From positions 20,121 through 84,120 of the forward strand of contig CALRHH010000001.1 in NCBI GenBank assembly GCA_943359395.1: 64,000 bases of DNA. The letters run 5' to 3'. A model generated the notes under the pieces. That model had not been told where the DNA came from. It worked only from the letters and a program-made list of their open reading frames with translations, and did not search any database. The position numbers and the translations under genes were made by a program. Below, one piece after another: positions 58,919-62,302 of the stretch; the first letter of the stretch is position 1, and each line of letters begins with the position of its first letter. The DNA is from Candidatus Nomurabacteria bacterium (GTDB taxonomy: Bacteria > Patescibacteriota > Minisyncoccia > Phycocordibacterales > UBA2100).

Positions 58919-61900
58919 TTACTCTTGAACGACGAAATTCACAAGCCTGCCCGGCACCACAATTGTGCGTAGAATTTTCTTACCCTCGAGGCGGACTGCC
59001 ACAGCATCGCGCCCGGCGCTTTCGATACCTCCCTTGTCCGCATCAGCCGGCACTTCTACGCCTCCACGCGTCTTGCCGTTAATCTGTATAGCAATCTTCA
59101 CGGTCTCTCCCACGAGACGACTCTCCTCATAGACCGGCCAGGTTGTTTGGTGAATCGATTTTTTTTGTCCACTTGCCGCCCACAATTCTTCCGCAATATG
59201 CGGCGCGAATGGCGCAAGCAATTTTAAGAAACTCTCCCATTGCTTTTTCCCGAGAGATCTCTCTTTCTCTGCTGCGTTGAGGAATATCATCAGGGCACTG
59301 ATAGCTGTATTGAATTTCATGGCGGTAATATCCTCCCCTACCTTCTTGATAGTTTTATGAAGAAGATTCTCAAGTGCGACATTCTCCGTTTTTCCCACAT
59401 GCTCTTGCGCCCTCCATACACGCTCCAAAAAGCGTCTCACGCCAACGACACTGTCGGGGTTCCACGGGAAGCTCGAAACCTCATTGTACGGTCCGATAAA
59501 GGCGAGATACATGCGTACAGTATCCGCCCCAAGTCGCCTGACGACCTCATCTGGGTCGACGACGTTACCCCTCGATTTGCTCATTTTTTGTCCATCCGGT
59601 CCGAGAATAATACTTCTGTTCATGCGCCTCCGGTACGGCTCAGGCTCTTTTACCAACCCGAGGTCGAAAAGGGCCTTATGCCAAAAACGACTGTAAAGCA
59701 GGTGCATGGTCGTATGCTCCGCACCGCCGGAGTACAAGTCGACCGGCATCCAGGGTTCCATCTTTTTTGCATCGGCAAACTTCTTACTGTTCTTCGAATC
59801 CGTGTAGCGTAAGAAATACCACGAGGAATCGACGAATGTATCGAGAGTGTCCGTCTCGCGCTCTGCCTTCCCTTTGCATTGCGGGCATCTCACCTGTACC
59901 CACTTCTCCGCTTTTGCGAGGGGCGATTTGCCACTTCCCTCAGGAAGGTAGTCTTTGACCTCCGGAAGCTTCACCGGTAGCTCGCTGTCTTTAACCGCCA
60001 CAGGACCACACGATGAGCAGTGCACGACCGGTATGGGAACTCCCCAGTAGCGTTGGCGCGAGACGATCCAATCGCGTAGCTTATACGTTATCTTAATCTG
60101 ACCAAACGTATCAGTTATCGCTTTCCGAGCCTCATCTGTTCTCATTCCGGTAAACGCATCGGAATTCGCAAGGATTCCCTCTCCTGTGTAATTTTCGGTG
60201 CCATTCAATCTATCCCACGCAACCTGCATCTCTGGCCTATTGAGGAACTGACGTACTTCCGTTCGTTTGAGCCAAACGACGTCGTGAAGCGCTCTCTCTT
60301 CAGCAGACATCTCATCGCGCTCTCCATCTTTCAACTCATAATACATGGGAACGTAGTGACCGAATCGATTCTCCTGTTTTGAAACAGAATAAAACTGCGC
60401 ATGTACCTTATCGCCAAGTGCTCGAATGAATTTCGCGTTTTTATATCCGGTCTCTTCTTGAATTTCCCGCAAGCCACATTCAACGACATCCTCCCCCTTT
60501 TCGATGCCACCCGTAACAAACCCGCGCATCGGCTGATCTTTCCACTGCAGGCAGATGAACTTATCCTCGGCCCAATGTTTTATCACAGCAACAACAGCGT
60601 CGCGCTCTACGAGCATTTCTCTCGGGCGAAGTGCGTCCATTCCTGTCGTTCGAATACTCAGGGGCTGGACAACCTTCACAACTGGGAGCTTATACTTTTT
60701 TGCAAATTCATTATCCCGCGCATCGTGCGCTGGGACGCCCATGACCGCACCTGTACCATAGTGTCCGAGCACATAATCGGCAACGTATACAGCGATTTCT
60801 TTGCCCGTTGCGGGATTCACGGCCTCCACGCCAGCGAGACGTATCCCTGTCTTTTCCTTCCCTTCCGCCGATCGCTCTATCTCAGTTCGCCCCTTTGCCT
60901 TTTCGACGTATTCCTGAACCTCTCCCCTGTTCTTCAATGCGTCGTCCTTTCCTTCAAGCGCATGAGTCACCCAGGGATGCTCCGGGGCCAGCACAAGGTA
61001 CGTGCCTCCGTACAAGGTATCCGCACGCGTCGTGAAGACGCGAATTGTCGGACGCAGCCACATCAGTACCGTCATTTCTTTATCACCTGTGAAGTGCGGT
61101 GTCTCCGCCACAACCCGTTCGGCTTTTATGCCCAAAGTTTTTTCAAGGTTGGTAATTTGTTGTTCACTTATAGCAGTATCGTGTATATCGTGCAGAATCG
61201 TTATAGATTTTGTATTTTTCTTTATTCTTGCTGTATCAAATTTCCATATGAACCGTTTATCGAAATTACGCGGTTTGTCTTTAAAGTTCCTGTCGACAAA
61301 TCCTCCGGCAAGCACCAGGTGCGCTATGGGGTTTTTTAGTTGTTCCACAACTTTCATTGCTATAACAGCACCCAAGCTGCCGCCAAAAAGAACGGTGTTC
61401 TCATCGTAATCAGCAGCGGCGAGCGCCGCCGCGACCTGTTCGTCTTCTGAGGGATGATCGGGGTTTGGCAAGGCTGGAATAACGACCTTATGCCCCTGTT
61501 TTTCAAGCTCAGCCTTCCAGTAGTGGAAACGCGGACGGTCCGGGCTTCCCTGGAAGCCATGCAAAATGACGTACGTGTATTTCTTTTCGTTAAATACCAA
61601 AGGAAAGTCTATCTCTGCACCCTCACTCCGCCCTATCCAATTTTTTTGCGATTCTTTTATCTCCTTCGGCCAATCGAGAGGTTCGAGGTCCTCGGTGAGT
61701 CTGTCGGCGTAGTCGGTGATTTTGATATTCCACTGAAGCATTTGCTTTTGGACGACTTCGCTATCACAGCGCTCACACTTACCGTTTACGACTTGCTCAT
61801 TGGCGAGAACGGTTTTATCTTTCGGACACCAGTTCACGGCCGTTTCCTTTCTGTACACCAACCCAGCTTTGAAGAGTTGCAGAAAGAGCCACTGCGTCCA

Positions 61901-62302
61901 TTTGTAGTATGCAGGGTCGCACGTCACGACTTCGCGTGACCAATCAAATGAAGTACCCATCGAGCGAATCTGATTCTTCATGTACTCGATGTTGCTCAAT
62001 GTCCATATGCGCGGGTTGAGCTTGTTTTTTATAGCTGCGTTTTCGGCAGGAAGACCGAACGCGTCAAATCCTATCGGATAGAGGACATTTTTCCCGCGCA
62101 TGCGCTGGAAGCGAGCGAGAATATCGGGTACCGCAAAAGCGTACCAGTGGCCTACGTGGAGGTTGCCCGAGGGGTATGGGAACTCGACAAGGAGGTAGAA
62201 GTTGTCCTTGCCCTTCGCCTTGTCGGAGGTTTCGTAGAGACCGTTTTTCTGCCACTCTTTTGGCCACTTCTTTTCTATCTTCGCGTGGTCATATCCCTTC
62301 AT
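58919..62302 (-). CDS. leuS: leucyl-tRNA synthetase with two in-frame inserted catalytic domains (alpha/beta serine hydrolase and Nudix)
   Basis: 1127 aa against about 820-860 typical. Canonical LeuRS HIGH ([11 protein letters not shown]), the CP1 editing-domain landmarks ([30 protein letters not shown]) and KMSKS are all present. See findings for the two insertions. Confidence 0.9.
   Translation of the reverse strand: [1127 protein letters not shown]

Follow-up and report, generated by a model that had tools for sequence, protein, structure and literature searches.

Why would a leucyl-tRNA synthetase (LeuRS), whose CP1 domain is itself an editing hydrolase, house two further hydrolases in its polypeptide chain, and what might they do there? 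The question is raised by an open reading frame (ORF) near the end of a 64,000-nucleotide stretch of DNA, hereafter the window, from a Candidatus Nomurabacteria bacterium (assembly GCA_943359395.1, contig CALRHH010000001.1). An initial annotation, made from the letters alone, had described its product as a LeuRS of 1127 residues into which an alpha/beta serine hydrolase and a Nudix hydrolase are inserted in frame. As detailed below, this architecture is genuine, widespread, modular and lineage-wide, i.e., common yet uncharacterised.

The composite nature of the protein and the integrity of its synthetase landmarks were both borne out. The whole product was assigned to NCBIfam TIGR00396 (leuS_bact) with 960.5 bits, the equivalog cut-off being 548.4, whereby Pfam recognized tRNA-synt_1, tRNA-synt_1_2 and Anticodon_1, i.e., the class I catalytic, editing and anticodon-binding domains. 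The best match in the PDB was the Thermus thermophilus LeuRS (1h3n, E-value 5.5e-217). All the peptides quoted in the annotation are present in the ORF, which has neither stop nor frameshift, and both inserts are indeed contained in one single frame. The parts belonging to the synthetase are listed here with window positions, amino acid (aa) numbers and the corresponding residues of the T. thermophilus enzyme:

58919..62302, minus strand: leuS ORF, ATG start, 1127 aa plus stop, uninterrupted; bacterial-type LeuRS with two nested domains
61598..62302, minus strand: N-terminal half of the catalytic core, aa 1-235, including the ZN domain region and closing with a 15-residue peptide whose letters are not shown; matches T. 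thermophilus 2-240
62147-62158, minus strand: HIGH motif HVGH, aa 49-52, kept in 119-120 of 120 homologs; coordinates verified by translation
60668..61039, minus strand: main part of the CP1 editing domain, aa 422-545, Pfam PF13603; T. thermophilus 243-363
61016-61033, minus strand: T-rich motif TTRADT of CP1, conserved in 120 homologs
60713-60757, minus strand: 15-residue segment of CP1 (GTG...HD region), conserved in homologs
58919..60193, minus strand: aa 704-1127 plus stop, comprising the end of CP1, the second core half (RQRYWG, Cys hairpins), KMSKS, and the anticodon-binding and C-terminal domains; T. thermophilus 377-593 and 637-877
59573-59587, minus strand: KMSKS, aa 906-910, within a ten-residue segment, present in 120 of 120 homologs

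The CP1 domain scored 180 bits with PF13603, and its residues T424, T425, R426, D428 and T429, G516-T-G, and H526-D527..R529-D530 show little or no variation among the 120 homologs. Since the editing residues are invariant, the inserts are additions, not replacements of a decayed editing site, and the idea that they substitute for a dead CP1 site is ruled out. With the synthetic site and the CP1 editing site intact, the LeuRS body looks fully functional, and, judged from its sequence, the ORF is the working leuS gene of a Kaiserbacteria-like bacterium of the Patescibacteria, or candidate phyla radiation (CPR). In comparison with the canonical bacterial enzymes (T. thermophilus 1h3n/2byt, Escherichia coli 4aq7/4arc), it has the same core, ZN region, T-rich and Asp motifs of CP1, anticodon-binding and C-terminal domains, and in those enzymes CP1 is likewise a hydrolytic domain nested in the Rossmann fold. 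What sets the window LeuRS apart are the two further enzyme domains in loops of the CP1 region and the absence of the leucine-specific domain: T. thermophilus residues ~594-636 are without counterpart, the alignment jumping from 593 to 637, and the sequence LGPDGQ stands directly before KMSKS (aa 900-912, window 59567-59605), with GPDG in place of the domain. This resembles the functional LeuRS of Mycoplasma mobile, which has a GKDG tetrapeptide instead of the leucine-specific domain (PMC3643597). Because functional LeuRSs without the domain are known, its absence does not exclude membership of the bacterial type. It also explains why the net excess over the canonical length is ~270 aa and not the 344 aa that both inserts comprise together.

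The insert borders were set from the alignment of the 120 homologs, where natural single-insert variants show gaps, and all insert coordinates were confirmed by translation. The locations proposed at first were right, while the borders moved outwards: the hydrolase, noted as ~180 aa at 61049-61585, spans 186 aa, and the Nudix domain, noted as ~140 aa at 60203-60640, spans 158 aa. Their features are the following:

61040..61597, minus strand: Insert 1, serine hydrolase of the PF06821 family, aa 236-421, 186 aa, at the N-terminal junction of CP1
61556-61561, minus strand: HG motif of Insert 1 (H248-G249), oxyanion motif
61370-61384, minus strand: nucleophile elbow GGSLG of Insert 1 (Ser309)
61178-61198, minus strand: ILHDIHD of Insert 1 (Asp372)
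61091-61105, minus strand: ETPHF of Insert 1 (His403)
60194..60667, minus strand: Insert 2, Nudix domain, aa 546-703, 158 aa, replacing a CP1 surface loop near the CP1 end (T. thermophilus 364-376); borders from hydrolase-only variants
60443-60511, minus strand: Nudix box of 23 residues, aa 598-620, exact fit to GX5EX7REUXEEXGU
60389-60394, minus strand: conserved aromatic pair F637-Y638 of Insert 2, 17-18 residues past the box

Scanned in isolation, both inserts rose above the Pfam gathering thresholds (NUDIX 21.1, Abhydrolase_1 25.8 and PF06821 22 bits), which upholds the two fold assignments of the annotation. On the whole protein, Pfam placed NUDIX at aa 569-685 and alpha/beta-hydrolase/Ser_hydrolase at aa 244-393. 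Modelled alone with AlphaFold2 (AF2), the hydrolase reached a predicted local distance difference test score (pLDDT) of 94.6 and the Nudix insert of 96.8; both thus fold as independent domains, and their catalytic residues are conserved. The inserts evolve fast, with a mean identity of 43-53% among homologs. By sequence and models, surface loops of the CP1 region house two autonomous hydrolases, both of them probably active as catalysts.

The junctions run from a ten-residue segment to PTIR/VFTTR for the hydrolase and from another ten-residue segment to NGTE/NYTGE for the Nudix domain. Inteins, for which the annotation had seen no motifs, are ruled out: there are no splicing residues at the junctions and no Hint, intein or LAGLIDADG match in Pfam. 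No direct or inverted repeats were found at the insert borders, which speaks against a transposon-like insertion. A viral origin was also considered and rejected, as no relatives of the inserts were found in IMG/VR and their PHROGs matches were generic only. Among the defence models of PADLOC-DB, the hydrolase insert was unmatched and the Nudix insert reached only 20.8 bits, to the box region of PDC-S07.

When placed on the T. thermophilus LeuRS, the hydrolase falls between residues 240 and 243, in the hairpin leading into the editing domain. The isolated insert scored 29.5 bits with Abhydrolase_1 and 26 bits with Ser_hydrolase (PF06821), whereby the latter reached 21.1 bits on the whole protein, slightly below its threshold. 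The minimal YdeN/RBBP9-type fold recognized in the annotation was confirmed by both structure and profile. The best Foldseek neighbours were Bacillus subtilis YdeN (1uxo, template modelling (TM) score 0.84) and human RBBP9 (TM 0.79-0.81, or 0.80 in round terms), and the family profile matched the same two proteins in the PDB at 1.7e-25 and 1.2e-21, respectively. Both families of structures (1uxo; 2qs9/7oex; PF06821) share with the insert the lid-less fold of ~185 aa and the HG, G-x-S-x-G, Asp and H-F motifs, and they differ in being free-standing rather than nested. The catalytic residues are nearly invariant among homologs (H248 in 118/118, S309 in 118/119, D372 in 116/118 and H403 in 118/118). 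The elbow of the window protein, GGSLG, is a rare variant of the family consensus GHSLG. On this basis, Insert 1 is predicted to be a lid-less YdeN/RBBP9-type hydrolase with a Ser-Asp-His triad.

Insert 2, described originally as a Nudix domain with a perfect box, proved to be so: the isolated segment scored 48.4 bits with Pfam NUDIX (PF00293), and a fold search gave 525 PDB matches at E<=1e-3, all the matches listed being Nudix proteins. The box residues G598, E604, R612, E613, E616, E617 and G619 are near-invariant, and the aromatic pair F/Y637-Y/F638 is conserved among the 120 homologs. The top of the Foldseek ranking comprised 2azw, the Aquifex diadenosine tetraphosphate (Ap4A) hydrolase 3i7u (second by fold), MutT1/Rv2985, AvrM14, RppH and CT771, with Ndx1 also present. 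The best profile match in the PDB was the lupin Ap4A hydrolase (1f3y, 6.3e-9), with ADP-ribose, decapping and NudB enzymes nearly equal. The group of diadenosine polyphosphate (ApnA) hydrolases and RppH (Aquifex aq_158 3i7u, lupin 1f3y, Rv2985 9cxx, CT771 4mpo, RppH) thus shares the full box and the fold and is among the best neighbours of the nested domain; the identity to it is, however, only 16-24%, and ADP-ribose pyrophosphatases, Dcp2, AvrM14 and NudB score similarly. A Tyr about 17 residues past the box, which we take to be a marker of ApnA hydrolases, was treated as a lead only. Free-standing relatives of the nested Nudix (P0121-P0127) are 38-45% identical to it and have the first Glu of the box changed to Gln and the box Arg to Ala; one of them ends a gene row adk-map-ndk-nudix (L037:85-2678). 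The window also contains a separate free-standing Nudix gene (52889-53512, minus strand, 207 aa, Pfam NUDIX 75.9 bits), at a distance of 5.4 kb from leuS. Its subfamily is not that of the nested Nudix, and it is overlapped by an ORF call for an RNase T-like 3'-5' exonuclease (53403-54092, minus strand).

The architecture is far from being confined to the window. A whole-protein search covering NCBI, JGI, ENA and Logan found over 100 cluster representatives that are 60-76% identical and share this layout of ~1125 aa, the named carriers being mostly Candidatus Kaiserbacteria, Parcubacteria, Paceibacterota or Patescibacteria. Nine representatives have the hydrolase only and two the Nudix domain only. 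A scan of GTDB species genomes, with an alignment of four hydrolase-domain sequences as the query, yielded 19 loci, and in all 19 the hydrolase lies in frame inside leuS; the closed Kaiserbacteria chromosome CP066682.1 carries the architecture as a single ORF. A metagenome scan with the free-standing relative P0128 gave two loci, both with the embedded form. Searches of a 5.8-billion-protein index with the inserts only returned free-standing relatives and no fusions. An assembly or gene-calling artefact, i.e., a chimeric contig, has practically no probability left and is ruled out: the window does come from a metagenome-type assembly, and no positive support for this explanation was found, whereas more than 100 independent clusters from four sources, all 19 GTDB genomes matched and the closed chromosome speak against it. 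The annotation had also supposed that such a LeuRS is undescribed. Indeed, no published description of the architecture was found in the open-access PMC and bioRxiv full text, and a bacterial LeuRS with additional, apparently active hydrolases in its editing region, swapped as cassettes, is apparently undescribed in that literature; the architecture is, however, not a one-off and is common across clusters.

Moreover, the inserts are not bound to one position. The hydrolase was found at at least two LeuRS sites and Nudix domains at at least three. The second hydrolase site follows RYWG.PIP..HC, within the latter half of the catalytic core, as Pfam confirmed in P0146 and P0194. The most elaborate case is the LeuRS of Candidatus Taylorbacteria (PLXZ01000004.1, L010:2186-7354; also L016), with an ORF of up to 1722 aa that houses five domains of hydrolase type: a tandem pair of Nudix domains (aa ~260-540) behind the ZN region, a YdeN-like hydrolase (~608-790), a third Nudix in CP1, and an HAD_2 domain (aa 1186-1339) within the second Cys hairpin. 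In Candidatus Spechtbacterales (JBBDZE010000005.1, L020:3269-6571), the LeuRS combines the hydrolase with a domain of ~130 aa at the Nudix site (aa ~550-680), for which there was no Pfam match. Three further representatives (P0130, P0139, P0141) begin with a Met a few residues before the hydrolase and miss the first half of the catalytic core, perhaps because the gene call was truncated or the LeuRS gene is split. One of them, P0130, has about 210 further residues without assignment between hydrolase and CP1. The public names of these LeuRSs are 'alpha/beta fold hydrolase', 'NUDIX domain-containing protein', 'class I tRNA ligase family protein' or 'hypothetical protein', and through such labels automated metabolic reconstructions may miss leuS and genomes could look leuS-less.

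The hydrolase clade as a whole is strongly associated with leuS. An exhaustive profile search of 1.84 billion representatives gave 102 proteins with E<=1e-30. Of the 150 top-ranking representatives, which were parsed, 34 have the hydrolase at the site seen in the window, 12 have it at the second LeuRS site and many are free-standing; the nested form is strongly biased to LeuRS, with 46 of ~58 nested representatives. The free-standing members tell the same story. The only close one in the first search, P0128 (49% identical), lies 7 bp upstream of a canonical leuS of 809 aa; P0155 lies 3 bp upstream of leuS, P0159 25 bp upstream of a leuS with the Nudix insert only, and P0162 37 bp upstream of a leuS of 801 aa, with leuS downstream on the same strand in all four. 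In the tight, same-strand cluster around P0158 (L028:4001-8549; GCA_020049755.1, JAHZTO010004402.1), the hydrolase is followed by a second Ser_hydrolase, a YbaK/EbsC-like tRNA_edit gene, a Ham1/RdgB-like nucleoside triphosphate (NTP) pyrophosphatase and an archaeal-type leuS. Archaeal-style helix-turn-helix (HTH) regulators lie upstream, and therefore the host may be a DPANN archaeon. Two other free-standing members, P0165 and P0145, are not beside leuS. In total, the free-standing hydrolase stands immediately upstream of leuS in 5/7 informative contexts, in four different arrangements. The same clade is also nested in frame in ValRS, AlaRS, TsaD, Der/EngA, a SecA fragment and a UvrA-like ABC protein (P0175, P0171, P0178, P0202, P0164 and P0197, respectively). 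Three of these six hosts (ValRS, AlaRS and TsaD) are tRNA enzymes, and in a rough neighbour-joining tree the hydrolases of the other hosts sit among LeuRS-associated sequences. This tree and the identity correlations given below are coarse and based on metagenomic protein representatives.

The modules and the synthetase that carries them appear not to have shared one history. Among the 120 homologs, the identities of the two core halves correlate with r=0.47, in comparison with only r=0.20 for the main CP1 segment against the core; since this segment tracks the core so poorly, recombination may be especially frequent throughout the CP1 region. The mosaic is most visible in pairs of representatives with near-identical cores:

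P0006 and P0107: N-terminal core half 100% identical, C-terminal core half 99%, hydrolase 49%, Nudix absent in P0107
P0011 and P0044: N-terminal core half 94%, C-terminal core half 99%, hydrolase 40%, Nudix 99%
P0021 and P0098: N-terminal core half 90%, C-terminal core half 93%, hydrolase 26%, Nudix 94%

P0102 and P0104 are another pair with 90-100% core identity and differing modules. The identity switches exactly at the insert borders, beside a conserved ten-residue segment and VFTTRxDT. The window LeuRS follows this pattern, with 90% and 84% identity to its nearest relative in the core, as compared with 66% for the hydrolase and 46% for the Nudix domain. Base composition deviates as well: G+C at third codon positions (GC3) is 0.478 in the hydrolase insert and 0.513 in the Nudix insert, the core value being 0.589 +/- 0.035 and the minimum of equal-length core windows 0.522. 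The C-terminal half of the hydrolase insert (61040-61370) has the lowest values, with a G+C of 0.33-0.41 and a GC3 of 0.34-0.38 as against ~0.52 and ~0.59 elsewhere in the gene, which is consistent with a recent foreign origin of that part of the cassette. The simplest reading of the mosaic is that the modules would have been repeatedly replaced, gained and lost by recombination between conserved LeuRS flanks.

What, then, might such modules do? The reading that we favour, at a rough probability of 0.45, is that they are optional accessory hydrolases acting beside LeuRS on aminoacyl and adenine-nucleotide species. Both domains would act alongside the synthetase without replacing CP1. The serine hydrolase would most likely cleave alpha-aminoacyl esters or amides with a free amino group, as does RBBP9, its closest characterised relative, and candidate substrates would be aminoacyl-tRNA, aminoacyl-adenylate or mimics of these. 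The likeliest substrates of the Nudix domain would be adenine (di)nucleoside polyphosphates, e.g., Ap4A, or aberrant NTPs formed or bound at the synthetase. As an aminopeptidase, RBBP9 trims residues from the N-terminus and depends on a free alpha-amine (PMC8866121). By the title of a work cited in PMC7730578, it is also reported to activate valacyclovir, an L-valyl ester, and this chemistry might be regarded as analogous to the deacylation of an aminoacyl ester. Dispensable, patchy and swapped by recombination, the modules would be quality-control cassettes like the trans-editing factors and not part of the core mechanism. An accessory editing and house-cleaning role agrees with the presence of YbaK and Ham1 in the L028 operon, and the Ham1 gene there would be a functional analogue of a Nudix house-cleaning enzyme. 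The suggestion of the annotation that the inserts provide extra proofreading or by-product clearance is a plausible hypothesis.

Several observations weigh against an accessory role beside LeuRS. The hydrolase identity correlates neither with that of the core (r=0.06) nor with that of the Nudix domain (r=-0.02) among the 120 homologs. The Nudix domain is present or absent between the near-identical cores of P0006 and P0107, and LeuRS therefore does not need it. The Nudix subfamily scores are weak, with 16-24% identity and E-values driven by the box, and none of the free-standing Nudix relatives lies beside leuS in the four contexts examined. RBBP9 holds the alpha-amine of its substrate through S76, Y99 and E108, and the alignment of hidden Markov models showed no conservation of these three residues. 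SecA, the UvrA-like protein and Der, as hosts of the nested hydrolase, are unrelated to aminoacylation. The other hosts would be expected if hydrolase, Nudix and, elsewhere, HAD domains were independent house-cleaning enzymes lodged in permissive LeuRS loops, where the fusion secures their expression and retention in a tiny, regulator-poor genome and LeuRS is simply the most tolerant carrier. We consider this explanation somewhat less probable than the accessory role and still a serious competitor to it. The same clade nested in ValRS, AlaRS, TsaD, Der, SecA and a UvrA-like protein argues for it, as do the multiple insertion sites (at least two for the hydrolase and at least three for Nudix), the Taylorbacteria LeuRS with three Nudix domains, hydrolase and HAD, and the unrelated 130-aa domain at the Nudix site of another LeuRS. 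It would likewise explain the dispensability seen in the presence, absence and allele swaps among near-identical cores, and it agrees with the free-standing Nudix relative within the adk-map-ndk nucleotide cluster and with the other free-standing Nudix gene in the window. It leaves unexplained, however, the LeuRS bias of the nested representatives and the position upstream of leuS in five of seven contexts, which involves bacterial- and archaeal-type leuS and, once, a gene of an aminoacyl-tRNA deacylase family; the chance of adjacency to one gene in roughly a thousand, five times over, is negligible.

The remaining explanations are less probable still. MccF and MccE are enzymes that detoxify aminoacyl-nucleotides, and the modules might, in a similar way, be immunity cassettes that destroy LeuRS-directed toxins, i.e., aminoacyl-adenylate mimics of the agrocin-84/TM84 or microcin-C type, with diversifying selection and recombination maintaining the alleles. 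This would explain the allele diversity; the cassette-like mosaic with sharp borders in conserved backbones, the insert composition deviating from the core and the ability of the hydrolase family to cleave alpha-aminoacyl linkages are in line with it. Precedents exist in the TM84-resistant self-immunity LeuRS AgnB2 (PMC5059758) and in the IleRS with a GNAT domain (NCBIfam NF040702). We nevertheless regard immunity as unlikely, because it is purely inferential, no toxin is known for these organisms, no known defence family was matched beyond the generic Nudix-box match, no viral relatives were found in IMG/VR, and the SecA and UvrA hosts do not fit. A supply of amino acids, whereby an RBBP9-like aminopeptidase would cleave leucine or other hydrophobic residues off the N-termini of scavenged peptides and pass them to the synthetase of an amino-acid auxotroph, is very improbable: it draws on the aminopeptidase activity of RBBP9 and on the fusions and operons with LeuRS, ValRS and AlaRS, but leaves the Nudix, HAD, Ham1 and YbaK partners and the SecA, UvrA and Der hosts without explanation. 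No more credit can be given to the domains being inert decoration, i.e., purely structural, tRNA-binding or protein-interaction modules. The fast evolution of the inserts and the rare GGSLG elbow in place of GHSLG would suit it, but 95-100% of homologs retain the triad, the oxyanion HG and the glutamates of the Nudix box in spite of an overall identity of only 43-53%.

If the modules are indeed accessory hydrolases of LeuRS, their nearest functional parallels would be the trans-editing factors YbaK/ProXp, AlaX and DTD, which are likewise optional and patchy hydrolases backing a synthetase, and a YbaK-like gene even shares the L028 operon. The YdeN/RBBP9 fold is, however, unrelated to them, and its family is not known to include a deacylase. 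The IleRS-GNAT (ileS_w_GNAT) offers a structural parallel, as it also joins a class Ia synthetase to a small-molecule-modifying domain; in the window LeuRS the partner domains are of other kinds, lie internally, number more than one and can be exchanged between strains. Extra domains are a familiar feature of eukaryotic synthetases, and editing domains are known everywhere. A bolder proposal, which we hold to be doubtful, is that exchangeable YdeN/RBBP9, Nudix and HAD cassettes use LeuRS as a docking platform, both in CPR/Patescibacteria and in certain organisms whose LeuRS is of archaeal type. They would act in cis on aminoacyl-nucleotide or aminoacyl-ester species, be these erroneous products or natural toxins that mimic aminoacyl-adenylates. 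If true, the YdeN/RBBP9 family would constitute an unrecognised class of synthetase-associated editing or immunity factor, diversified by recombination across the CP1 flanks. To our knowledge, this family is an orphan without a known function in bacteria, and with LeuRS it gains a concrete genomic partner. The natural variants moreover map where insertions are tolerated in LeuRS, an enzyme that is a drug target via CP1, and illustrate how accessory enzymes are packaged in the genome-reduced CPR bacteria.

As for the surroundings of the gene, ARAGORN found no tRNA or tmRNA genes across the 64-kb window. The leuS gene is convergent with cysS (CysRS, 492 aa, 57438-58916, plus strand), their stop codons being 2 bp apart. 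A CorA transporter and an S41/PDZ protease adjoin this pair, and leuS is preceded, at a distance of 39 bp, by a gene for a DUF5671 membrane protein.

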